The notes under the pieces are model-generated. The model did not search any database. It was not told where the DNA came from and saw only the letters and a list, made by a program, of their open reading frames with translations. This document shows, piece by piece, positions 41,916 through 55,529 of a DNA stretch of 64,000 nt. The stretch is from Escherichia coli. Its GTDB lineage: Bacteria; Pseudomonadota; Gammaproteobacteria; Enterobacterales; Enterobacteriaceae. Every line of letters starts with the position of its first letter. Positions within the stretch are counted from its first letter, which is position 1. A program made the position numbers and the translations under genes. The stretch is from NCBI RefSeq assembly GCF_022846255.1, contig NZ_AP025682.1; one strand, written 5' to 3'.

Positions 41916-42193
41916 ATAAAAAATAGCCCTGCAATGTAAATGGTTCTTTGGTGTTTTTCAGAAAGAATGTGATGAAGTGAAAAATTTGCATCACAAACCT
42001 GAAAAGAAATCCGTTTCCGGTTGCAAGCTCTTTATTCTCCAAAGCCTTGCGCAGCCTGAAGGTAATCGTTTGCGTAAATTCCTTTGTCAAGACCTGTTAT
42101 CGCACAATGATTCGGTTATACTGTTCGCCGTTGTCCAACAGGACCGCCTATAAAGGCCAAAAATTTTATTGTTAGCTGAGTCAGGAGATGCGG

Positions 42194-43447
42194 ATGTTAA
42201 AGCGTGAAATGAACATTGCCGATTATGATGCCGAACTGTGGCAGGCTATGGAGCAGGAAAAAGTACGTCAGGAAGAGCACATCGAACTGATCGCCTCCGA
42301 AAACTACACCAGCCCGCGCGTAATGCAGGCGCAGGGTTCTCAGCTGACCAACAAATATGCTGAAGGTTATCCGGGCAAACGCTACTACGGCGGTTGCGAG
42401 TATGTTGATATCGTTGAACAACTGGCGATCGATCGTGCGAAAGAACTGTTCGGCGCTGACTACGCTAACGTCCAGCCGCACTCCGGCTCCCAGGCTAACT
42501 TTGCGGTGTACACCGCGCTGCTGGAACCAGGCGATACCGTTCTGGGTATGAACCTGGCGCATGGCGGTCACCTGACTCACGGTTCTCCGGTTAACTTCTC
42601 CGGTAAACTGTATAACATCGTTCCTTACGGTATCGATGCTACCGGGCATATCGACTACGCCGATCTGGAAAAACAAGCCAAAGAACACAAACCGAAAATG
42701 ATTATCGGTGGCTTCTCTGCATATTCCGGCGTGGTGGACTGGGCGAAAATGCGTGAAATCGCTGACAGCATCGGTGCTTACCTGTTCGTTGATATGGCGC
42801 ACGTTGCGGGCCTGGTTGCAGCTGGCGTCTACCCGAACCCGGTTCCTCATGCTCACGTTGTTACTACCACCACTCACAAAACCCTGGCGGGTCCGCGCGG
42901 CGGCCTGATCCTGGCGAAAGGTGGTAGCGAAGAGCTGTACAAAAAACTGAACTCTGCCGTTTTCCCTGGTGGTCAGGGTGGTCCGTTGATGCACGTAATC
43001 GCCGGTAAAGCGGTTGCTCTGAAAGAAGCAATGGAACCTGAGTTCAAAACTTACCAGCAGCAGGTCGCGAAAAACGCCAAAGCGATGGTAGAAGTGTTCC
43101 TCGAACGTGGCTACAAAGTGGTTTCTGGTGGTACTGATAACCACCTGTTCCTGGTTGATCTGGTTGATAAAAACCTGACCGGTAAAGAAGCAGACGCCGC
43201 TCTGGGCCGTGCTAACATCACCGTGAACAAAAACAGCGTACCGAACGATCCGAAGAGCCCGTTTGTGACTTCCGGTATTCGTGTAGGTACTCCGGCGATT
43301 ACCCGTCGTGGCTTTAAAGAAGCCGAAGCGAAAGAACTGGCTGGCTGGATGTGTGACGTGCTGGACAGCATCAATGATGAAGCCGTTATCGAGCGCATCA
43401 AAGGTAAAGTTCTCGACATCTGCGCACGTTACCCGGTTTACGCATAA
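42194..43447 (+). CDS. glyA: Serine hydroxymethyltransferase
   Basis: 417 aa from [12 protein letters not shown]; PLP-lysine region [14 protein letters not shown]. Confidence 0.95.
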
Positions 43448-43473
43448 GCGAAACGGTTAATCTGTTGAAAAAA

Positions 43474-43491
43474 GGCTTCCTTCGGGAAGCC
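43474..43491. terminator. Bidirectional hairpin terminator between convergent glyA and yphH
   Basis: GGCTTCC-TTCG-GGAAGCC flanked by A/T runs. Confidence 0.55.
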
Positions 43492-43510
43492 TTTCTACGT
43501 TATCGCGCCA

Positions 43511-44710
43511 TCAAATCTGCCGTAACTGCGCCTCAACATACAAATAGCCAATTCCCAGTACCTGTTGTGCGCGGCTTAATTGCCCAAAGCCAATCTGTGT
43601 CGCTTTCACGCTCGGTCCTTCGTCGCGGTCGAACGGGTTAAATCCCGTCTGGCGAATAATGGTATTAAGCCAGTTCTCACCAAAGGCACAACTGCGACCG
43701 TACAACCAAATCTGATTAATATTGAGGATGTTGAGGAAGTTATACAGACTCAAACCAATGGCGTTGGCACTGTGGTCAACCCAACTGGTGATCCACGGTT
43801 CTCCACTCTGCCAGGCAGCGATTAACTGCGCGGTAGTCAGTTTTTCAGGATCAAGCTGAGTATTAACCGGTTGTGATTTTAGCCATACCCGCGCCTGTTT
43901 TTTTAATGCGCTTAACGAGGCGACGGTTTCCAGGCAGCCATAACGTCCGCAGTCGCAGACGACGCCATCCGGATTAACGATGGTGTGACCAATCTGTCCG
44001 CTACCATACAAACTGCCGCGATAAATTTGCTCGTTAATCACGAACGACGAGCCAATGCCGTAATCAACGTTGATCACGCAGAAATCCCGGCCCTGCGAAT
44101 TATTTTGCCATTTCTCCGCCAGCGCCAGCATCACGCAGTCATTATCGACCATCACCCGAATGCCGAGCTTCTCTTCCAGCAGATATTTTACCTCAACCGG
44201 CGTTGTCCACGGCGCTTGCGGCATGGTTTGCGACACGCCGGTCACCGGATCAACCTGACCGTGGATTGCCAGCGCCAGGTTGATGGTACGGTCCGGCCAC
44301 AATTTACGGTGGCGATGCCAGCATTTTTCGATTTCGGACAGCAGCGCCTGCGGCGTCGGTGCATCAATCTGTAAATACTCAAATTCACCTTTCGGACTTA
44401 AACAAGCATTAGCAACCTGACACTCAATACTGGTGGGCGTCACGTTCAGGCACAGCGTCCAGTCACCTTCCGGCGCAATCAGCCATGTACCGCTACTATG
44501 CCCGCGCGTCTGGCTTTCATCGTCGATATTCACCACCCGTTTTTCGCTTTCCAGTTCCTGCAAAATATTACTGACTGCCGGAATCGAAATTTGCGCCAGC
44601 CGGGCCAGTGTCGATTTATTGGCGCGCTTTTGCCGGTACAGCAGTTCCAGAATCACGCATTTGTTATGGTGGCGAATCTGTTGATTATTAATGCAGGCTC
44701 TCATCTTCAC
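43511..44710 (-). CDS. yphH: ROK-family (NagC/XylR-like) transcriptional regulator
   Basis: N-terminal HTH, sugar-kinase-like fold with Cys/His cluster; synteny. Confidence 0.75.
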   Translation of the reverse strand: MKMRACINNQQIRHHNKCVILELLYRQKRANKSTLARLAQISIPAVSNILQELESEKRVVNIDDESQTRGHSSGTWLIAPEGDWTLCLNVTPTSIECQVANACLSPKGEFEYLQIDAPTPQALLSEIEKCWHRHRKLWPDRTINLALAIHGQVDPVTGVSQTMPQAPWTTPVEVKYLLEEKLGIRVMVDNDCVMLALAEKWQNNSQGRDFCVINVDYGIGSSFVINEQIYRGSLYGSGQIGHTIVNPDGVVCDCGRYGCLETVASLSALKKQARVWLKSQPVNTQLDPEKLTTAQLIAAWQSGEPWITSWVDHSANAIGLSLYNFLNILNINQIWLYGRSCAFGENWLNTIIRQTGFNPFDRDEGPSVKATQIGFGQLSRAQQVLGIGYLYVEAQLRQI

Positions 44711-44821
44711 TAAACCTTGTTTAGTTAATTGCGTGATTATTCCACGAAAACATTGCCAGATTGTTCAATACACTGCCACAAATCTTTTAATTCAGTATGT
44801 CTTGTTAATATTGAGGGTACC

Positions 44822-47800
44822 ATGACTCCAGTAAAAGTGTGGCAAGAGCGCGTTGAGATCCCGACCTATGAAACCGGGCCGCAGGATATACATCCCATGT
44901 TCCTGGAAAATCGCGTTTATCAGGGATCGTCCGGCGCGGTTTATCCCTACGGCGTGACCGATACGCTGAGCGAGCAGAAAACCCTGAAATCCTGGCAGGC
45001 GGTGTGGCTGGAAAACGACTACATCAAAGTGATGATCCTGCCGGAACTGGGCGGTCGGGTGCATCGCGCGTGGGATAAAGTGAAACAGCGCGATTTTGTT
45101 TATCACAATGAAGTCATTAAACCGGCGCTGGTGGGACTGCTGGGGCCGTGGATCTCCGGCGGGATTGAGTTTAACTGGCCGCAACACCATCGCCCGACCA
45201 CCTTTATGCCCGTTGATTTCACCCTCGAAGCCCATGACGACGGCGCACAGACGGTGTGGGTCGGCGAAACGGAGCCGATGCACGGTTTACAGGTGATGAC
45301 AGGTTTCACCCTGCGCCCTGACCGGGCGGCGCTGGAAATCGCCAGTCGCGTCTATAACGGCAACGCCACGCCGCGTCATTTCTTGTGGTGGGCCAACCCG
45401 GCAGTGAAAGGGGGTGAAGGGCATCAGAGCGTTTTCCCACCGGATGTGACTGCGGTGTTTGATCACGGCAAACGGGCCGTCTCCGCTTTCCCCATCGCCA
45501 CCGGCACTTACTACAAAGTGGACTACTCCGCCGGAGTGGACATTTCTCGCTATAAAAATGTGCCCGTTCCAACCTCATATATGGCTGAAAAATCACAGTA
45601 CGATTTTGTTGGCGCGTGGTGTCACGATGAAGATGGTGGTTTGCTACACGTTGCCAACCACCATATTGCGCCAGGTAAAAAACAGTGGAGCTGGGGACAC
45701 AGTGAATTTGGCCAGGCGTGGGATAAGAGCCTGACCGACAATAACGGTCCGTATATCGAACTGATGACCGGTATTTTTGCCGATAACCAGCCTGATTTTA
45801 CCTGGCTTGATGCTTACGAGGAGAAGCGTTTCGAGCAGTATTTCCTGCCTTACCATTCTTTGGGCATGGTGCAAAACGCCTCCCGCGATGCGGTGATTAA
45901 ACTCCAGCGTAGCGAGCGGGGGATTGAGTGGGGGCTGTATGCCATCTCTCCGTTGAACGGATACCGTCTGGCGATCCGCGAAATCGGCAAATGCAACGCG
46001 TTGCTCGATGATGCGGTGGTCCTGACACCAGCGACCGCCATCCAGGGCGTGTTGCACGGTATCAATCCTGAAAGGCTGACCATTGAGCTCTCCGATGCCG
46101 ACGGCAATATTGTACTGAGTTATCAGGAACATCAGCCGCAAGCGTTGCCGTTGCCGGACGTCGCCAAAGCGCCACTGGCAGCACAAGACATTACCAGTAC
46201 AGATGAAGCCTGGTTTATCGGTCAACATCTGGAGCAATATCATCACGCCAGCCGTTCACCGTTCGATTACTATCTGCGCGGCGTGGCGCTGGATCCGCTG
46301 GATTATCGCTGTAATCTGGCGCTGGCAATGCTGGAATATAACCGTGCCGATTTCCCGCAAGCGGTGGTATATGCCAGTCAGGCACTGAAACGCGCACATG
46401 CGCTGAACAAAAATCCGCAGTGCGGACAGGCGAGTTTGATTCGCGCCAGCGCTTACGAACGTCAGGGGCAATATCAACAAGCCGAAGAGGATTTCTGGCG
46501 TGCGGTCTGGAGCGGCAACAGTAAAGCGGGCGGCTATTATGGTCTGGCACGACTGGCGGCGCGTAATGGTAACTTCGACACTGGTCTGGATTTTTGCCAA
46601 CAAAGTCTTCGCGCCTGCCCAACCAATCAGGAAGTGCTTTGCCTGCATAACCTGCTACTGGTGTTAAGTGGTCGTCAGGACAACGCGCGTTTGCAGCGCG
46701 AGAAACTGCTGCGTGATTATCCGCTGAACGCCACTCTGTGGTGGCTGAACTGGTTCGATGGTCGTAGCGAATCAGCCCTCGCGCAGTGGCGAGGTCTTTG
46801 TCAGGGACGCGACGTTAACGCCCTGATGACCGCCGGGCAACTGATTAACTGGGGCATGCCCGCCCTGGCGGCAGATATGCTGAACGCACTGGACTGTCAG
46901 CGCACGCTACCGCTTTACCTGCAAGCCAGTTTGCTACCAAAAGCTGAACGCGGAGAACTGGTCGTAAAAGCTATTGATGCCTTCCCGCAGTTTGTCCGTT
47001 TCCCTAATACGCTGGAAGAAGTGGCGGCGCTGGAGAGTATCGAAGAGTGCTGGTTTGCCCGGCATTTACTGGCCTGCTTCTACTACAACAAGCGTAGCTA
47101 CGGCAAAGCCATTGCCTTATGGCAGCGTTGCGTAGAGATGTCGCCGGAGTTTGCCGACGGCTGGCGCGGGTTGGCGATCCATGCGTGGAATAAGCAGCAC
47201 GATTATGAGCTGGCCGCGCGTTATCTTGATAATGCTTATCAGCTTGCGCCGCAGGATGCACGTCTGCTTTTCGAACGGGATTTGCTGGATAAGTTAAGCG
47301 GTGTCACACCGGAGAAACGACTGGCGCGTCTGGAAAATAATCTGGAAATTGCGCTGAAACGCGACGACATGACCGCAGAACTGCTCAATTTGTGGCATCT
47401 CACTGGTCAGGCAGACAAAGCGGCGGACATTCTCGCCACGCGCAAATTCCACCCGTGGGAAGGTGGGGAAGGGAAGGTCACCAGCCAGTTTATCCTCAAC
47501 CAGTTATTACGCGCCTGGCAGCATCTTGATGCCAGAGAGCCGCAGCAGGCCAGCGAACTGCTTCATGCCGCGCTGCATTATCCGGAGAATTTAAGCGAAG
47601 GCCGTTTACCGGGGCAAACTGACAACGACATCTGGTTCTGGCAGGCAGTATGCGCCAACGTGCAGGGCGATGAAACTGAAGCGACGCGTTGTTTACGTCT
47701 GGCGGCGACCGGCGATCGCACCATTAACATCCACAGTTATTACAACGATCAGCCGGTTGATTATCTCTTCTGGCAAGGAATGGCGCTGCGACTGCTGGGC

Positions 47801-48103
47801 GAACAACACACCGCACAGCAACTGTTTAGTGAAATGAAACAGTGGGCACAAGAGATGGCGAAAACCAGTATCGAAGCGGATTTCTTTGCCGTCTCGCAGC
47901 CTGACTTGTTGTCGCTGTATGGCGATTTACAACAGCAGCATAAAGAAAAATGCCTGATGGTGGCGATGCTGGCGGCCGCGGGATTAGGGGAGGTTGCGCA
48001 CTATGAATCTGCTCGCGCTGAATTGATGGCGATTAATCCAGCCTGGCCGAAAGCGGCATTATTCACCACCGTGATGCCTTTTATTTTTAGCTACGTTCAC
48101 TAA
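44822..48103 (+). CDS. yphG: Large TPR-containing protein YphG
   Basis: 1093 aa from MTPVKVWQ; C-terminal TPR-like repeats; synteny with yphF-A. Confidence 0.7.
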   Translation: MTPVKVWQERVEIPTYETGPQDIHPMFLENRVYQGSSGAVYPYGVTDTLSEQKTLKSWQAVWLENDYIKVMILPELGGRVHRAWDKVKQRDFVYHNEVIKPALVGLLGPWISGGIEFNWPQHHRPTTFMPVDFTLEAHDDGAQTVWVGETEPMHGLQVMTGFTLRPDRAALEIASRVYNGNATPRHFLWWANPAVKGGEGHQSVFPPDVTAVFDHGKRAVSAFPIATGTYYKVDYSAGVDISRYKNVPVPTSYMAEKSQYDFVGAWCHDEDGGLLHVANHHIAPGKKQWSWGHSEFGQAWDKSLTDNNGPYIELMTGIFADNQPDFTWLDAYEEKRFEQYFLPYHSLGMVQNASRDAVIKLQRSERGIEWGLYAISPLNGYRLAIREIGKCNALLDDAVVLTPATAIQGVLHGINPERLTIELSDADGNIVLSYQEHQPQALPLPDVAKAPLAAQDITSTDEAWFIGQHLEQYHHASRSPFDYYLRGVALDPLDYRCNLALAMLEYNRADFPQAVVYASQALKRAHALNKNPQCGQASLIRASAYERQGQYQQAEEDFWRAVWSGNSKAGGYYGLARLAARNGNFDTGLDFCQQSLRACPTNQEVLCLHNLLLVLSGRQDNARLQREKLLRDYPLNATLWWLNWFDGRSESALAQWRGLCQGRDVNALMTAGQLINWGMPALAADMLNALDCQRTLPLYLQASLLPKAERGELVVKAIDAFPQFVRFPNTLEEVAALESIEECWFARHLLACFYYNKRSYGKAIALWQRCVEMSPEFADGWRGLAIHAWNKQHDYELAARYLDNAYQLAPQDARLLFERDLLDKLSGVTPEKRLARLENNLEIALKRDDMTAELLNLWHLTGQADKAADILATRKFHPWEGGEGKVTSQFILNQLLRAWQHLDAREPQQASELLHAALHYPENLSEGRLPGQTDNDIWFWQAVCANVQGDETEATRCLRLAATGDRTINIHSYYNDQPVDYLFWQGMALRLLGEQHTAQQLFSEMKQWAQEMAKTSIEADFFAVSQPDLLSLYGDLQQQHKEKCLMVAMLAAAGLGEVAHYESARAELMAINPAWPKAALFTTVMPFIFSYVH

Positions 48104-48199
48104 ACCCTATTAACTGTAATATTTGAGCGGCACGCGCTGCCGCTCACGCTCAAATAATTAAAATAAGCCGTTGTAAATAAAAACCCTACAGGAGGCACT

Positions 48200-49183
48200 A
48201 TGCCTAAAAAAATGACAAGAACCCGTAATTTATTATTAATAGCTACGCTATTGGGTAGCGCACTATTTGCCAGGGCTTCTGATAAAGACATGACTATTGG
48301 CGCAATATACCTTGATACCCAGGGATATTACGCCGGAGTGCGTCAGGGCGTTCAGGATGCGGCAAAAGATTCTTCAGTACAGGTACAGTTAATTGAAACT
48401 AACGCTCAGGGCGATATTTCGAAAGAAAGTACCTTTGTTGATACCCTCGTGGCGCGTAATGTCGATGCCATTATTTTATCGGCAGTGTCTGAAAATGGCA
48501 GTAGCCGTACCGTTCGTCGCGCCAGTGAAGCGGGTATTCCGGTGATTTGCTACAACACCTGTATTAATCAAAAGGGTGTCGATAAATATGTCTCGGCATA
48601 TCTGGTTGGTGACCCGCTGGAATTTGGTAAAAAACTGGGTAACGCAGCCGCCGATTATTTTATTGCCAACAAAATTGACCAGCCGAAAATTGCCGTCATC
48701 AATTGCGAAGCCTTTGAAGTTTGTGTGCAGCGACGTAAAGGATTTGAAGAAGTATTAAAATCCCGCGTTCCCGGCGCGCAAATAGTCGCTAATCAGGAAG
48801 GGACTGTTTTAGATAAAGCGATTTCCGTTGGTGAAAAACTGATTATCTCCACGCCGGATCTCAACGCCATTATGGGGGAATCGGGCGGAGCGACACTCGG
48901 CGCGGTAAAAGCGGTACGTAATCAAAATCAGGCCGGAAAAATTGCTGTTTTCGGTTCGGATATGACCACTGAAATTGCTCAGGAGCTGGAAAACAATCAG
49001 GTGTTGAAAGCGGTGGTGGATATTTCCGGTAAGAAAATGGGCAATGCTGTTTTCGCGCAAACTTTGAAGGTTATCAATAAACAAGCCGACGGTGAAAAAG
49101 TGATTCAGGTGCCTATCGATCTCTATACCAAAACGGAAGACGGTAAACAGTGGCTGGCAACGCACGTTGATGGTCTGCCCTAA
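48200..49183 (+). CDS. yphF: ABC transporter periplasmic sugar-binding protein
   Basis: 327 aa; signal peptide; upstream of ABC ATPase and permease genes. Confidence 0.8.
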   Translation: MPKKMTRTRNLLLIATLLGSALFARASDKDMTIGAIYLDTQGYYAGVRQGVQDAAKDSSVQVQLIETNAQGDISKESTFVDTLVARNVDAIILSAVSENGSSRTVRRASEAGIPVICYNTCINQKGVDKYVSAYLVGDPLEFGKKLGNAAADYFIANKIDQPKIAVINCEAFEVCVQRRKGFEEVLKSRVPGAQIVANQEGTVLDKAISVGEKLIISTPDLNAIMGESGGATLGAVKAVRNQNQAGKIAVFGSDMTTEIAQELENNQVLKAVVDISGKKMGNAVFAQTLKVINKQADGEKVIQVPIDLYTKTEDGKQWLATHVDGLP

Positions 49184-49205
49184 TCGCTGATTCGCAGAGG
49201 TCCCT

Positions 49206-50717
49206 ATGTTCACGGCAACAGAGGCAGTCCCGGTAGCAAAAGTGGTGGCAGGAAATAAGCGTTACCCCGGCGTCGTTGCGCTGGATAACGTTAACTTCAC
49301 GCTCAATAAAGGCGAAGTTCGCGCGCTGTTAGGCAAAAACGGTGCGGGAAAATCGACCCTCATTCGAATGCTGACCGGTAGCGAACGTCCGGATAGCGGT
49401 GATATCTGGATTGGCGAGACGCGACTGGAAGGTGACGAAGCTACGCTGACTCGCCGTGCCGCTGAACTGGGGGTTCGTGCGGTTTATCAGGAGTTAAGTC
49501 TGGTGGAAGGGCTGACAGTGGCGGAAAACCTCTGCCTCGGTCAGTGGCCCCGCCGCAACGGCATGATTGATTACCTGCAAATGGCGCAGGACGCCCAACG
49601 TTGCTTGCAGGCGTTGGGCGTTGACGTTAGTCCTGAACAACTTGTTTCAACACTAAGCCCGGCGCAAAAGCAACTGGTGGAAATTGCGCGGGTGATGAAG
49701 GGCGAGCCGCGCGTGGTCATTCTTGATGAACCCACCAGCTCGCTTGCCAGTGCGGAAGTTGAACTGGTGATCAGCGCGGTGAAAAAGATGTCGGCACTGG
49801 GCGTGGCGGTGATTTATGTCAGCCACCGGATGGAAGAAATTCGCCGCATTGCCTCCTGTGCCACCGTTATGCGCGATGGTCAGGTGGCGGGCGATGTGAT
49901 GCTCGAAAACACCTCTACGCATCATATTGTGTCGCTAATGCTCGGGCGCGATCACGTTGATATTGCGCCGGTTGCCCCTCAGGAAATTATGGATCAGGCC
50001 GTGCTGGAAGTCCGTGCGTTACGCCATAAGCCCAAGCTGGAGGATATCAGCTTTACGCTACGTCGCGGCGAAGTGCTCGGCATTGCTGGCCTGCTGGGGG
50101 CAGGGCGCAGTGAATTGCTGAAGGCGATTGTTGGGCTGGAGACGTATGAACAGGGCGAAATTGTTATCAACGGCGAGAAAATCACGCGCCCCGATTACGG
50201 CGACATGCTGAAACGCGGCATTGGCTATACGCCAGAAAACCGCAAAGAAGCGGGGATCATTCCCTGGCTGGGCGTTGACGAAAATACAGTGCTGACCAAT
50301 CGGCAAAAAATCAGCGCCAACGGTGTGCTGCAATGGTCCACCATCCGCCGCCTGACCGAAGAGGTGATGCAGCGGATGACGGTCAAGGCCGCCAGTAGCG
50401 AAACGCCCATCGGCACGCTTTCTGGCGGCAATCAGCAAAAAGTGGTGATCGGTCGTTGGGTCTATGCCGCCAGCCAGATTTTGTTGCTCGACGAGCCAAC
50501 GCGTGGCGTCGATATCGAAGCCAAACAGCAGATTTACCGTATTGTCCGCGAGCTGGCTGCCGAAGGAAAAAGCGTGGTGTTTATCTCCAGTGAAGTGGAG
50601 GAGTTGCCGCTGGTGTGTGACCGCATCCTGTTATTACAGCACGGCACGTTCTCGCAGGAGTTTCACTCTCCGGTCAATGTGGATGAGCTGATGTCCGCCA
50701 TTCTGTCTGTGCACTGA
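49206..50717 (+). CDS. yphE: ABC transporter ATP-binding protein (two fused ATPase domains)
   Basis: 503 aa; Walker A GKNGAGKST and ABC signature LSGGNQQK. Confidence 0.85.
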   Translation: MFTATEAVPVAKVVAGNKRYPGVVALDNVNFTLNKGEVRALLGKNGAGKSTLIRMLTGSERPDSGDIWIGETRLEGDEATLTRRAAELGVRAVYQELSLVEGLTVAENLCLGQWPRRNGMIDYLQMAQDAQRCLQALGVDVSPEQLVSTLSPAQKQLVEIARVMKGEPRVVILDEPTSSLASAEVELVISAVKKMSALGVAVIYVSHRMEEIRRIASCATVMRDGQVAGDVMLENTSTHHIVSLMLGRDHVDIAPVAPQEIMDQAVLEVRALRHKPKLEDISFTLRRGEVLGIAGLLGAGRSELLKAIVGLETYEQGEIVINGEKITRPDYGDMLKRGIGYTPENRKEAGIIPWLGVDENTVLTNRQKISANGVLQWSTIRRLTEEVMQRMTVKAASSETPIGTLSGGNQQKVVIGRWVYAASQILLLDEPTRGVDIEAKQQIYRIVRELAAEGKSVVFISSEVEELPLVCDRILLLQHGTFSQEFHSPVNVDELMSAILSVH

Positions 50718-50741
50718 TGAATTTTACCGAGGAACCTGAAG

Positions 50742-51740
50742 ATGTCTGCTTCGTCATTACCATTGCCGCAGGGCAAGAGCGTCTCGCTCAAACAATTTGT
50801 CAGTCGCCATATTAATGAGATCGGTTTGCTGGTGGTGATTGCCATTCTTTATCTGGTCTTCTCCCTGAACGCGCCTGGCTTTATCTCATTGAATAACCAG
50901 ATGAACGTGCTGCGCGATGCCGCCACCATCGGGATCGCCGCCTGGGCGATGACGCTGATTATTATCTCCGGTGAAATTGATGTCAGCGTTGGGCCGATGG
51001 TGGCTTTTGTTTCAGTGTGCTTGGCGTTTTTGCTGCAATTTGAAGTTCCGCTGGCGATTGCTTGTCTGCTGGTGTTGCTGTTAGGTGCGCTGATGGGAAC
51101 GCTGGCCGGGGTGCTGCGCGGCGTGTTTAATGTGCCAAGTTTTGTTGCCACGCTGGGTTTATGGAGCGCCCTGCGCGGAATGGGGCTGTTTATGACGAAC
51201 GCCTTGCCAGTGCCAATTAACGAAAACGAAGTGCTGGACTGGCTGGGCGGACAATTTCTCGGTGTGCCGGTATCCGCGCTGATCATGATGGTGTTATTTG
51301 CGCTGTTTGTGTTCATTAGCCGCAAAACCGCCTTCGGGCGCTCGGTTTTTGCTGTTGGCGGTAATGCCACTGCAGCGCAGTTGTGCGGTATTAACGTTCG
51401 TCGGGTACGCATTCTTATTTTTACCCTTTCGGGATTATTAGCGGCGGTGACCGGCATTTTGTTGGCGGCGCGCCTCGGTTCCGGTAACGCAGGTGCCGCA
51501 AACGGTCTGGAGTTTGACGTCATCGCCGCGGTCGTGGTCGGCGGTACGGCGCTTTCCGGTGGTCGCGGCTCGTTGTTCGGTACGCTGCTTGGCGTACTGG
51601 TGATTACGCTAATCGGTAACGGTCTGGTGCTGCTCGGGATTAACTCCTTTTTCCAGCAGGTGGTGCGCGGCGTCATCATCGTGGTGGCGGTGCTGGCGAA
51701 TATCTTGCTGACCCAGCGTAGCAGTAAAGCGAAACGCTAA
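50742..51740 (+). CDS. yphD: ABC transporter permease
   Basis: 332 aa; multiple TM helices; operon position. Confidence 0.85.
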   Translation: MSASSLPLPQGKSVSLKQFVSRHINEIGLLVVIAILYLVFSLNAPGFISLNNQMNVLRDAATIGIAAWAMTLIIISGEIDVSVGPMVAFVSVCLAFLLQFEVPLAIACLLVLLLGALMGTLAGVLRGVFNVPSFVATLGLWSALRGMGLFMTNALPVPINENEVLDWLGGQFLGVPVSALIMMVLFALFVFISRKTAFGRSVFAVGGNATAAQLCGINVRRVRILIFTLSGLLAAVTGILLAARLGSGNAGAANGLEFDVIAAVVVGGTALSGGRGSLFGTLLGVLVITLIGNGLVLLGINSFFQQVVRGVIIVVAVLANILLTQRSSKAKR

Positions 51741-51805
51741 ACCTTAACGCCCCTGGCGCGGGTGCGGCAGGGATGAAAATTAATCGTATTGTTAATGAGG
51801 GATTT

Positions 51806-52867
51806 ATGAAAACGATGCTGGCAGCTTATTTACCAGGAAATTCGACCGTCGATCTGCGGGAAGTTGCGGTGCCGACGCCGGGTATTAACCAGGTACTGAT
51901 CAAAATGAAATCCTCCGGAATTTGCGGAAGCGATGTCCACTATATCTACCACCAGCACCGCGCTACGGCGGCGGCACCCGATAAACCGTTATACCAGGGA
52001 TTTATCAACGGTCATGAACCGTGCGGGCAAATTGTGGCGATGGGGCAAGGCTGCCGCCATTTTAAAGAGGGCGACCGTGTGCTGGTGTATCATATTTCTG
52101 GCTGTGGTTTTTGCCCGAACTGCCGTCGTGGTTTTCCTATCTCTTGTACTGGCGAAGGAAAAGCGGCTTACGGCTGGCAGCGTGACGGCGGCCATGCTGA
52201 ATACCTGCTGGCGGAAGAAAAAGATCTGATCCTCCTGCCGGATGCACTGAGTTACGAAGATGGTGCGTTTATCAGTTGCGGCGTTGGTACAGCGTATGAA
52301 GGGATTTTGCGCGGCGAAGTTTCCGGCAGTGATAACGTGCTGGTGGTCGGTCTGGGGCCGGTCGGCATGATGGCGATGATGCTGGCAAAAGGTCGCGGTG
52401 CAAAAAGGATCATCGGCGTTGATATGCTGCCGGAACGTCTGGCGATGGCGAAACAGTTAGGAGTGATGGATCACGGCTATTTAGCGACTACCGAAGGTCT
52501 GTCGCAGATAATCGCCGAACTCACTCACGGCGGCGCGGATGTTGCGCTTGATTGTTCCGGTAATGCCGCAGGTCGCTTACTGGCACTGCAATCCACCGCT
52601 GACTGGGGACGCGTGGTTTACATTGGTGAAACCGGAAAAGTGGAGTTCGAGGTTAGCGCCGACCTGATGCACCATCAACGGCGGATTATCGGCTCCTGGG
52701 TGACCAGTTTGTTCCATATGGAAAAATGCGCCCACGATTTAACGGACTGGAAACTGTGGCCGCGTAACGCCATTACCCATCGTTTCTCGCTGGAACAGGC
52801 GGGAGATGCTTATGCACTGATGGCAAGCGGCAAATGTGGGAAAGTTGTGATTAATTTCCCGGATTAA
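51806..52867 (+). CDS. yphC: Zn-dependent alcohol/polyol dehydrogenase family oxidoreductase
   Basis: 353 aa from MKTMLAAY; GHEPCG zinc motif; GLGPVG Rossmann motif. Confidence 0.8.
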   Translation: MKTMLAAYLPGNSTVDLREVAVPTPGINQVLIKMKSSGICGSDVHYIYHQHRATAAAPDKPLYQGFINGHEPCGQIVAMGQGCRHFKEGDRVLVYHISGCGFCPNCRRGFPISCTGEGKAAYGWQRDGGHAEYLLAEEKDLILLPDALSYEDGAFISCGVGTAYEGILRGEVSGSDNVLVVGLGPVGMMAMMLAKGRGAKRIIGVDMLPERLAMAKQLGVMDHGYLATTEGLSQIIAELTHGGADVALDCSGNAAGRLLALQSTADWGRVVYIGETGKVEFEVSADLMHHQRRIIGSWVTSLFHMEKCAHDLTDWKLWPRNAITHRFSLEQAGDAYALMASGKCGKVVINFPD

Positions 52868-52878
52868 GGAGTCTGCGG

Positions 52879-53751
52879 ATGACCATCTATACCTTATCTC
52901 ACGGGCCGCTAAAGCTGGACGTTTCTGATCAGGGCGGCGTAATCGAAGGCTTCTGGCGCGATACGACGCCGCTGCTACGTCCTGGTAAAAAAAGCGGTGT
53001 GGCAACCGATGCCTCTTGTTTTCCGCTGGTGCCGTTTGCAAACCGGGTGAGCGGCAATCGTTTTGTCTGGCAGGGGCGTGAGTATCAACTGCAACCGAAT
53101 GTTGAGTGGGATGCGCACTATCTGCACGGCGACGGCTGGCTGGGGCAGTGGCAATGTGTCTCGCGCAGCGAAGATAGCTTGTGTCTGGTGTATGAACATC
53201 GCAGCGGTGTTTATCACTATCGGGTAAGTCAGGCGTTTCATTTAACGGCAGATACGCTGACGGTGACGCTCTCTGTCACCAATCAAGGGGCAGAGACGCT
53301 GCCATTTGGTACCGGCTGGCATCCTTATTTTCCGTTGTCGCCGCAAACGCGGATTCAGGCACAGGCGAGCGGTTACTGGCTGGAGCGGGAGCAGTGGCTG
53401 GCGGGTGAATTTTGCGAGCAGCTACCGCAGGAACTGGATTTTAACCAGCTCACGCCGTTGCCGCGCCAGTGGGTAAACAATGGTTTTGCCGGATGGAATG
53501 GTAAGGCCCGCATCGAGCAGCCGCAGGAGGGTTATGCCATCATCATGGAAACGACGACACCTGCACCGTGTTATTTCATCTTTGTTTCAGACCCGGCGTT
53601 TGATAAAGGATATGCGTTTGATTTCTTCTGTCTGGAACCGATGAGCCATGCGCCGGATGACCATCATCGCCCGGAAGGTGGTGACCTCATTGCGCTTGCA
53701 CCAGGGGAATCAACAACTTCAGAGATGTCGTTGCGGGTTGCGTTACTGTAA
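52879..53751 (+). CDS. yphB: Aldose 1-epimerase family protein
   Basis: 290 aa; operon position. Confidence 0.75.
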   Translation: MTIYTLSHGPLKLDVSDQGGVIEGFWRDTTPLLRPGKKSGVATDASCFPLVPFANRVSGNRFVWQGREYQLQPNVEWDAHYLHGDGWLGQWQCVSRSEDSLCLVYEHRSGVYHYRVSQAFHLTADTLTVTLSVTNQGAETLPFGTGWHPYFPLSPQTRIQAQASGYWLEREQWLAGEFCEQLPQELDFNQLTPLPRQWVNNGFAGWNGKARIEQPQEGYAIIMETTTPAPCYFIFVSDPAFDKGYAFDFFCLEPMSHAPDDHHRPEGGDLIALAPGESTTSEMSLRVALL

Positions 53752-53759
53752 TTTATAAA

Positions 53760-53792
53760 ATGCCGGATAAGGCGTTCACGCCGCATCCGGCA
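53760..53792. repeat. REP palindromic element
   Basis: TGCCGGATAAGGCGTTCACGCCGCATCCGGCA between convergent yphB and yphA. Confidence 0.6.
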
Positions 53793-53798
53793 TCTTTC

Positions 53799-54221
53799 CT
53801 AACGGCGATCGAGAGAAATCGCCCCCGGCCCGGTAATTGCCAACAGCAGGAATGCGCCAGCGATACTGACATTCTTCCAGAAATTAATCATATTTGGCCC
53901 AACCGCATCGCCGGTCATATCCCAGTAATGGTGACCAATTACCGCTGTACCCAGCGTGTAGAAAATAAACAGCACCGCCAGCGGACGGGTGAAAAAGCCA
54001 AGCACGATTAATATCGCGGCGGGCACTTCCATAACTACCGCAATAATCGCTGCCAGCATCGGCATTGGCGCGCCCAGCGAGGCCATATATTGGACCGTAC
54101 CGTCAAAGCCCATCATTTTGGGAAAACCAAAAATAATGAAAATTAAGACCACGGCGATACGGGCAATTAATAACAAAACGGGGCGTGCAGCACCAAAATC
54201 AAAATAACGTAGTGTGTTCAT
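53799..54221 (-). CDS. yphA: DoxX-family inner membrane protein
   Basis: 140 aa from MNTLRYFDF; four hydrophobic helices. Confidence 0.75.
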
Positions 54222-54317
54222 AACCAATCCCTTTGCAAGATAATGTGATTTAAACGTAATACACACTCTGGCACCTCGCCACGCCCCAGGAGTTGAGATA
54301 TTCGCTAATTGTCCTGG

Positions 54318-55529
<1,212 letters not shown>

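Follow-up and report, generated by a model that had tools for sequence, protein, structure and literature searches.

The yph cluster of Escherichia coli is located within a 64,000-nucleotide stretch of contig NZ_AP025682.1 (hereafter, the window) and includes eight intact reading frames at positions 43511–54266: yphH on the minus strand, yphG, yphF, yphE, yphD, yphC, and yphB on the plus strand, and yphA again on the minus strand. The initial annotation, made from the sequence alone, had described a yphH–yphA cluster here, and all eight genes are indeed in place and intact. The protein families it named agree with the Pfam assignments, which are ROK for YphH, DUF5107 plus tetratricopeptide repeats (TPR) for YphG, Peripla_BP_4 for YphF, double ABC_tran for YphE, BPD_transp_2 for YphD, Zn-ADH for YphC, Aldose_epim for YphB, and DoxX for YphA. 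The yph cluster is a familiar kind of sugar-utilisation operon around an unfamiliar core protein, YphG. The yphG gene (44822–48103, plus strand) starts with an ATG preceded by a GAGGG ribosome-binding site and encodes exactly 1093 amino acids, the length given at the outset for the TPR protein; the mechanically maximal reading frame of 1124 amino acids begins with a TTG at 44729, the true start being the ATG at 44822.

YphG is built of three parts, all encoded on the plus strand. Residues 1–345 (44822–45856) correspond to DUF5107 and lack a signal peptide, residues from about 346 to 440 (45857–46141) form a small all-beta domain of variable sequence, and residues from about 455 to 1093 (46184–48103) make up some 26 helices of a TPR solenoid. 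Structure prediction gives the N-terminal third a mutarotase (aldose-1-epimerase) fold. The model of residues 1–455, built from 73 diverse sequences, has a predicted local distance difference test score (pLDDT) of 94.4 and displays the mutarotase beta-sandwich; the predicted domain is structurally closer to free mutarotases than to the accessory domains of glycosidases. The middle domain contains strands only, according to DSSP on the model, and comprises the least conserved blocks of the protein, with top-residue frequencies of 0.27–0.30. Within the C-terminal part, canonical 34-residue TPR motifs form the solenoid over residues from about 455 to 1093, several TPR families of Pfam are matched, and residues 747–815 align to the crystal structures of consensus TPRs; the C-terminal 239 residues gave no match when compared by sequence with the Protein Data Bank (PDB). 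In a full-length AlphaFold2 model derived from 27 close sequences, with a pLDDT of 73, the conserved loops of the N-terminal domain scored below 50 and could not be used. With a full-length YphG model, Foldseek retrieved TPR solenoids and PDB entry 5cd6 only. This entry is BDI_1685 from Parabacteroides distasonis, a structural-genomics “TPR-domain containing protein” with no assigned function, which, with its 575 residues, is half the length of YphG and lacks the long solenoid bearing the PWEGGEG and NLGEG motifs.

In terms of sequence, YphG stands outside the aldose-1-epimerase family, as it does not match PF01263 in Pfam and bears no detectable similarity to the free enzymes of this kind (GalM, YeaD, YphB; PDB 1l7j, 2hta, 3nre, 3mwx). 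Compared with them, YphG is three times larger due to the extra beta domain and a TPR solenoid of about 640 residues, has conserved motifs of its own, e.g., GPWISGGIEFNWPQHHRP and YTDNQPDF, and shares its operon with a true mutarotase. No known family of glycoside hydrolases, lyases, or phosphorylases was found for YphG in Pfam or NCBIfam either, and the folds retrieved are TPR only. In enzymes of the GH65, GH94, and GH15 types, catalysis belongs to an (alpha/alpha)6 barrel and the sandwich is an accessory, whereas conservation in YphG is highest in the sandwich, and its helices form true TPRs.

About 50 of the 61 positions that are kept in at least 93% of 105 distant full-length homologues fall in residues 1–353 of YphG. 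Most of the residues conserved family-wide are polar or aromatic and belong to the N-terminal domain (E116, H122, H123, R124, H215, E313, and D325, as well as W110, W291, and W300); by their position only, the invariant E313 and the near-invariant H122, H123, and H215 are candidates for the catalytic residues. In the solenoid, the conserved polar residues are isolated (Q472, Y483, W563, R782, E818, E880), and the PWEGGEG and NLGEG motifs are conserved as well. We read this distribution as a putative composite site, formed by the solenoid closing on the sandwich.

A full scan of 1.84 billion representative proteins, with clustering at 50% identity, has revealed 1147 clusters of the YphG family at E<1e-30, mostly of about 1100 residues and aligning end to end with 30–46% identity. 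In a scan of one genome per species, YphG relatives were found in at least 597 species, and the family spans four phyla. In the best 80 loci, represented by Mucilaginibacter, Flavobacterium, Zobellia, Parabacteroides, Prevotella, Paenibacillus, Ruminiclostridium, Lachnospiraceae, and one planctomycete, the N-terminal 455 residues are 54–59% identical to those of the E. coli protein, so that this level of identity reaches Bacteroidota, Bacillota, and Planctomycetota. That the E. coli-like branch maintains it from Proteobacteria to Bacteroidota and Bacillota indicates an activity under strong constraint.

The gene neighbourhoods of YphG vary in a regular manner. The module of Aeromonas, Serratia, and a Sodalis-like genome consists solely of a ROK regulator gene on the minus strand followed by genes for YphG, a sugar porter of the major facilitator superfamily (MFS), and a YphB-type epimerase, while the Citrobacter module includes ROK, YphG, the epimerase, and a LacY-like permease. 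Next on the ROK strand in Citrobacter are genes for an MFS_2 transporter, a GH36 alpha-galactosidase, an OprD-like porin, and a 975-residue protein without a Pfam match, which suggests that the ROK regulator of this bacterium also controls the use of alpha-galactosides. The Klebsiella locus reproduces the E. coli arrangement, except that the DoxX gene adjoins yphH, and a metagenomic YphG homologue with 43% identity is surrounded by a ROK regulator, an epimerase, and a Peripla_BP_4 protein. When E. coli Yph proteins were compared by BLAST with the 80 related loci, ROK and YphB-type partners were found only in gamma-proteobacteria and are therefore not universal companions of YphG; most members of the family adjoin AraC or LacI regulators rather than ROK.

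The neighbourhoods were further surveyed in 77 loci, in which genes were called crudely, neighbours were clustered, and cluster representatives were annotated. A sugar-porter MFS gene is present in 46 of the 77 loci (40 of the 44 from Bacteroidota), and in 24 it directly precedes the YphG gene in the same orientation; the encoded proteins pass the sugar-porter model TIGR00879 and are nearest to XylE. AraC regulators were found in 43 loci and GH2 glycosidases in 27, followed in smaller numbers by GH35, GH97, GH36, GH95, sulfatases, GDSL esterases, GalM-like epimerases, DUF4432, and SusC/SusD. The GH2 neighbours in Bacteroidota begin with signal or lipoprotein sequences, whereas the YphG homologues of the 77 loci have no signal sequence and no room for one. 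According to the simplest reading of this difference, an exported exo-glycosidase frees a sugar, the porter imports it, and YphG acts on it in the cytoplasm. A recurring gene order is shared by loci of marine Flavobacteriia (L044, L046, L051, L056, L061, L073, and L087), comprising a sulfatase, a sugar porter, a GDSL esterase, a GH2 enzyme, the YphG homologue, another sulfatase, and mostly a second GH2; this order suggests a locus for an algal glycan that contains galactose, is sulfated, and may be acetylated.

Across all these genomes, the module is composed of YphG, a transporter of any type, and a regulator, supplemented with a mutarotase in gamma-proteobacteria. The TPR protein, which had been regarded as atypical for such operons, is instead the conserved centre of the module.

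YphH, the ROK-family transcriptional regulator of 397 amino acids encoded divergently from yphG (43511–44704, minus strand), scores 112 bits with PF00480, matches MarR/HTH_24-like winged helix-turn-helix (wHTH) models at its N-terminus (residues 18–56), and bears the ROK zinc signature GQIGHTIV...VCDCGRYGCLE. It shares with NagC and Mlc the wHTH plus ROK architecture and the zinc motif, but it falls far below the NCBIfam equivalog cut-offs for both (110 against 650 for NagC and 109 against 530 for Mlc) and so is not recovered as an orthologue of either; its putative operator has another sequence, and the YphH group lacks the conserved GR linker motif (PMC4288165). In the literature, YphH has been called “a third uncharacterized ROK repressor” (PMC4288165), and in 2022 it was among 58 transcription factors of unknown function (PMC9308461).

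An inverted-repeat search has found a 23-bp imperfect palindrome, TTCACTAAAC-CTT-GTTTAGTTAA, at 44706–44728, only 2 bp from the yphH start codon. A second copy of this element (O1), designated O2 and reading TTCACTAAAC-CCT-ATTAACTGTA, occupies 48096–48118, where it overlaps the yphG stop codon and precedes the yphF ATG by 82 bp; the consensus is TTCACTAAAC-N3-GTTAACTGTA. O1 takes the same position in Aeromonas, Serratia, Citrobacter, Klebsiella, and the Sodalis-like genome, and the element is also present in Hafnia, Budvicia, Enterobacter, E. albertii, and Photobacterium, being kept in all gamma-proteobacterial loci examined. O2 occurs only where the ABC operon follows, i.e., in E. coli, E. 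albertii, Klebsiella, Enterobacter BIGb0383, and Budvicia. The exact 10-mer TTCACTAAAC has three copies in the window, all inside the yph cluster, and the extended operator pattern has four matches against 0.22 expected, three of them on O1 or O2. The 23-bp span of the two elements is equal to that of the NagC/Mlc sites with their −11 to +11 geometry (PMC4288165). O1 and O2 are likely, as judged from their sequence and conservation, to be the operators of YphH, in which case YphH would be autoregulated and yphFEDCB would have a control point of its own. The third TTCACTAAAC half-site, at 47824–47833 on the minus strand inside yphG, lacks a recognisable second half and may be either a chance occurrence or an auxiliary site.

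Directly after O1, at 44729–44736, there is an octamer, TTGCGTGA, which is identical in six genera. The combination TTGCGTGA-N6-CCACGA was considered as a CRP site and rejected, as only the left half is conserved between genera. The octamer may belong to the promoter or start region of yphH on the minus strand; there it would come after a −10-like AATAAT, at what could be the yphH transcription start. On the plus strand, the −10-like hexamer TACACT (TAnACT; 44769–44774), which precedes the yphG ATG by about 48 bp, is a candidate for the −10 element of this gene: when unaligned intergenic sequences are compared by eye, other genera have TAGACT, TATACT, TAAACT, CAAACT, or TAATCT, followed by G, in a comparable position. 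A generic sigma-70 scan yielded 7 promoter-like sites against 9.0 expected, with none in the yphH–yphG gap and with TACACT left uncalled. Just after O2, between yphG and yphF, a GC-rich hairpin GAGCGGC-N7-GCCGCTC (48125–48145, plus strand; −16.1 kcal/mol, z −3.05) is also present in E. albertii, Klebsiella, and Enterobacter, where the stem is conserved and the loop varies. Because it lacks a U-run in E. coli, it is not a standard terminator and may serve as a weak terminator or as a stabiliser of the mRNA end. Another terminator-like hairpin, at the end of yphG (48055–48078), is no better than shuffled sequences (z −1.26).

The genes yphFEDCB are tightly packed on the plus strand, with gaps of 11–32 bp. 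The first of them, yphF (48200–49183), encodes the periplasmic solute-binding protein of a CUT2-type sugar ABC importer, with a Sec signal peptide (MPKKMTRTRNLLLIATLLGSALFARA) and 116 bits with PF13407 (Peripla_BP_4). Among proteins of solved structure, those binding ribose, allose, galactose, and galactofuranose are nearest to YphF, and none of them is close; the best relative is 5hsg (E 9e-25; ligand unstated). YphE (49206–50717, 503 amino acids) is a fused double-ABC ATPase with two ABC_tran stretches, whose likeness to AraG, XylG, and AlsA (E 1e-127 to 1e-136) stays below all equivalog cut-offs; the permease YphD (50742–51740; PF02653, BPD_transp_2) resembles RbsC and AraH, also below the cut-offs. 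The signal-bearing binding protein, the double ATPase, and the BPD_transp_2 permease together have the architecture of a CUT2-type system, the same three-part build as in RbsABC, AlsBAC, XylFGH, AraFGH, MglBAC, and YtfQRT-YjfF, yet YphFED reaches none of the equivalog models of these E. coli importers. All NCBIfam substrate equivalogs compared (ribose, xylose, arabinose, allose, galactose, galactofuranose, autoinducer-2, and rhizopine) gave scores far below the cut-offs, e.g., 455 against 689 for AraG and 63 against 335 for AlsB. CUT2-type ABC importers carry monosaccharide-sized solutes. Uptake and catabolism of a sugar or polyol, as the initial annotation supposed, fits both the domain content and the neighbourhoods of the homologues.

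In a 2023 review, yphFED figures as a “putative ABC transporter” for “sugar” (PMC10305011), and a yphF mutant has been included among several ABC importer mutants of uropathogenic E. coli (PMC11032443). In an engineered strain, the YphF protein was found to be 3.0- to 4.6-fold more abundant on levoglucosan than on fructose, and XylF, MalE, UgpB, UgpC, MglA, and YtfQ rose alongside it (PMC8753852). In view of this joint rise, levoglucosan was rejected as the yph substrate; general relief of catabolite repression is a more likely cause, and for this reason the increase in YphF is not taken as specific induction.

YphC (51773–52867, plus strand) is a zinc-dependent dehydrogenase of the medium-chain dehydrogenase/reductase (MDR) superfamily, probably NAD-dependent. 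It combines ADH_N and ADH_zinc_N and has the catalytic zinc ligands C51/H81/E82, a structural zinc site of four cysteines at 110–124, the Rossmann motif GLGPVG, and an Asp after the second strand, which is an NAD-type fingerprint. None of the substrate equivalogs, including those for sorbitol and galactitol-1-phosphate, is reached by YphC, the best scores being 172 against 380 for Tdh and 170 against 450 for IolM (scyllo-inosose). The protein is absent from the MFS-type modules of Aeromonas, Serratia, Citrobacter, and the Sodalis-like genome, as well as from nearly all of the 77 loci; it occurs only with the ABC version of the module and is an accessory component.

YphB (52879–53751, plus strand) scores 184.6 bits with PF01263 against a gathering threshold of 27, and its R56 and the catalytic H148 and E253 are invariant across YphB-type and GalM-type neighbours; by these features, it can be regarded as a bona fide aldose 1-epimerase. 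YphB corresponds essentially to the structural-genomics entry PDB 3nre (E 1e-201) and has served as the structural reference for YihR-type mutarotases (PMC5902678), while no report of its mutarotase activity was found in the literature.

The last gene, yphA (53799–54221, minus strand), encodes a DoxX-family membrane protein (PF07681) of 140 amino acids in RefSeq, the previously given end at 54266 corresponding to the longest GTG-initiated frame. Its homologues were found in 4 of the 80 loci and are absent from those of Aeromonas, Serratia, and Citrobacter; in Klebsiella, strain RIT691, and Enterobacter Ag1 they adjoin yphH, i.e., lie on the other side of the cluster. Because of this variable position and its absence from most related loci, yphA, although initially counted as a cluster member, is excluded here and is probably a neighbour rather than a part of the yph system. 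The cluster is flanked by glyA (42188–43447) and hcaD (54318–55520).

The locus belongs to the core chromosome, as had been claimed for it: of 5426 complete E. coli genomes, 5425 gave a megablast match to the 11-kb stretch, with 95–99% identity and in each case chromosomal, and 80% or more of the query was covered in 5369 of them. At the level of at least 99% identity to 43400–54400, none of the 5426 genomes qualified, the highest value among the matches listed being 98.7%; the window may derive from a lineage not represented there, such as Shigella or a seldom-sequenced group of E. coli. The presence of the locus is not new, as it is already annotated everywhere. In E. coli IAI39 (NC_011750.1), a transposase of the IS1397 family is annotated under the yph match, and in one genome labelled as E. 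coli, only 92% identical, yphG is split into frames of 841 and 244 residues. No substrate or activity for yphA–H or DUF5107 was found in the full-text literature, nor was any published substrate assignment for the transporter, and the description of the cluster as functionally uncharacterised still stands; none of the eight Yph proteins reaches an NCBIfam equivalog cut-off. The yphG gene is mentioned in publications mainly as a PCR marker for Klebsiella pneumoniae.

We tentatively favour, with less than even confidence, the explanation that yph, under repression by its ROK regulator, serves to import and convert a sugar of monosaccharide size, probably related to galactose, and that YphG is an enzyme independent of cofactors. 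YphH would bind O1, at the 5′ end of yphH and upstream of yphG, and O2, upstream of yphF, to keep yphH, yphG, and yphFEDCB off until a sugar inducer appears. By family membership, the binding protein YphF, the ATPase YphE, and the permease YphD would constitute the CUT2-type importer, and YphB in the cytoplasm would equilibrate the anomers. YphG would serve as the core enzyme, its N-terminal domain being completed by the conserved polar residues of the solenoid, and might work cofactor-free on the imported sugar, at its hemiacetal carbon or close to it. Isomerisation or epimerisation through ring opening, or else a switch of ring form, are conceivable reactions, and the product would be a common hexose usable by housekeeping kinases. 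YphC would then be a lineage-specific NAD-linked dehydrogenase adding a redox step in the ABC-type versions of the module. A comparable organisation is known for the yih sulfoquinovose locus of E. coli, itself once a y-gene sugar cluster, in which a transporter and a repressor likewise accompany a core enzyme that converts the sugar and a mutarotase dedicated to it (YihR). However, the yih locus has a recognisable GH31 glycosidase, an isomerase, a kinase, and an aldolase, whereas the yph core is represented by YphG only, and its chemistry is therefore not readable from family names.

The types of the partner transporters, the exported GH2 neighbours, and the closeness of the N-terminal domain to free mutarotases favour the conversion of a monosaccharide. 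Several considerations weigh against it. To our knowledge, no activity, ligand, or phenotype has been described for any member of the family, and we know of no enzyme in which a mutarotase fold and a TPR solenoid form the catalytic unit. The comparison of YphG by hhalign with YphB and with a YphB/GalM alignment gave a probability of 0.1%; as the profiles give no signal, the catalytic residues cannot be mapped by sequence. The operon already contains a separate true mutarotase, YphB, which argues that YphG is not a plain mutarotase. The binding of YphH to O1 and O2 is deduced from their conservation, and the probable relation of the sugar to galactose is deduced from the families of the neighbouring glycosidases, where the GH2 neighbour most resembles the model of the BT4151 exo-beta-1,4-galactosidase and reaches 552 bits against a cut-off of 1500. 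Finally, the absence of downstream enzymes, the existence of exported and CBM-fused relatives, and a CUT1 neighbour favour the cleavage of a glycoside.

These last features lead to the best surviving alternative, which we nevertheless consider unlikely. Here, YphG would be a glycoside hydrolase- or phosphorylase-like enzyme of an unrecognised family that cleaves an imported small glycoside or disaccharide, after which YphB would equilibrate the anomer of the released aldose and, in E. coli, YphC would handle the second product. Analogues for such a role of YphB are provided by GalM, which follows LacZ, and by YihR, which accompanies YihQ. A minimal operon without a kinase or aldolase is typical of systems whose products are ordinary sugars. 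The YphG family has both cytoplasmic and exported branches, as 22 of the 105 distant representatives have signal-peptide-like N-termini; one distant member bears a CBM9-like C-terminal domain, another a domain of the endonuclease/exonuclease/phosphatase family. A homologue with 30% identity has a LacI regulator and a CUT1 ABC transporter of the oligosaccharide type as neighbours, the loci of the family are rich in glycosidases, sulfatases, and SusC/D, and many Trp, Tyr, Asp, and Glu residues are conserved in YphG. It is against cleavage that YphG matches no glycoside-hydrolase family in Pfam or NCBIfam, that its helices form a true TPR solenoid and not an (alpha/alpha)6 barrel, and that its N-terminal domain is nearer to free mutarotases than to the accessory domains of glycosidases. 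Besides, the partner transporters are of monosaccharide types (CUT2 ABC importers and XylE-like sugar porters), and the adjacent GH2 enzymes of Bacteroidota are exported exo-glycosidases, which should hand monosaccharides over to the porter.

It could also be supposed that YphG is not an enzyme at all but a sugar sensor, whose mutarotase-like domain binds the sugar and whose TPR solenoid captures YphH. In gamma-proteobacteria, yphH and yphG invariably stand side by side in divergent orientation, TPR solenoids are well known for binding other proteins, and the ROK repressor Mlc is known to be regulated by sequestration, by PtsG or MtfA. However, in most of the family the partner regulator is not ROK but of the AraC or LacI type, or is missing altogether, about one-fifth of the distant members look exported, with one fused to a CBM9-like domain, and the 54–59% identity of the N-terminal domain across phyla, with dozens of invariant polar residues, exceeds what ligand sensing usually needs. 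We regard this possibility as improbable. Because of the exported members, the CBM9-like fusion, and the association with AraC and LacI rather than ROK, we favour YphG as a carbohydrate-active enzyme without a nucleotide cofactor over a dedicated partner of YphH.

Slightly less probable still is a pathway centred on YphC, in which a polyol or an unusual aldose imported by YphFED would be oxidised or reduced by this dehydrogenase, with YphB in an auxiliary role and YphG peripheral. The complete zinc-MDR active site and the NAD-type fingerprint of YphC are in line with it, as are its best similarities, to polyol, threonine, and scyllo-inosose dehydrogenases, a weak match to the model of the glucose-dehydrogenase C-terminus, and the tight packing of yphFEDCB behind a putative operator copy of its own. 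Yet YphC reaches no NCBIfam equivalog and is missing from the MFS-type modules and from nearly all of the 77 loci, where YphG is constant; because YphC is found only with the ABC version, a YphC-centred polyol pathway is unlikely as the core function. The view that in E. coli the cluster is a silent relic without present function, for which one may cite the lack of a growth phenotype or inducer in the literature searched, a generic promoter scan with nothing above chance, and the single genomes with an IS1397 insertion or a split yphG, is the least credible of all, given the eight intact frames here, the coverage of at least 80% in 5369 of 5426 complete genomes, the conservation of the putative operators and the −10-like element across genera, and the detection of the YphF protein with its 3.0- to 4.6-fold rise on levoglucosan (PMC8753852).

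Returning to the conversion of an imported monosaccharide by YphG, a bolder version of it, which we hold as doubtful though conceivable, is that YphG founds a new enzyme class, in which a mutarotase-fold domain and a TPR solenoid form one active site for a hitherto undescribed, cofactor-free conversion of a galactose-type sugar. If this is true, YphG would act on a sugar produced by GH2, GH35, GH36, or GH97 enzymes, and the reaction would be an unrecognised sugar-salvage step common to E. coli, Klebsiella, Aeromonas, Paenibacillus, and the gut and soil Bacteroidota.

What is new here is the recognition of YphG as the conserved core of a module, the predicted mutarotase fold of its N-terminal domain, the spread and neighbourhoods of its family, and a candidate operator. 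The search is thereby narrowed to YphG rather than YphC as the protein to assay, to two candidate sites for YphH, and to galactose-related monosaccharides as the first compounds to try. YphG is a very large protein that has had no function ascribed to it and is present in essentially every E. coli genome examined. Once its substrate is found, a function would be obtained for eight E. coli genes together, along with a regulon for the third ROK repressor of this bacterium; a reaction would be added to the sugar-catabolism maps of gut and soil bacteria, and it would become clear what a mutarotase fold combined with a TPR solenoid can catalyse.

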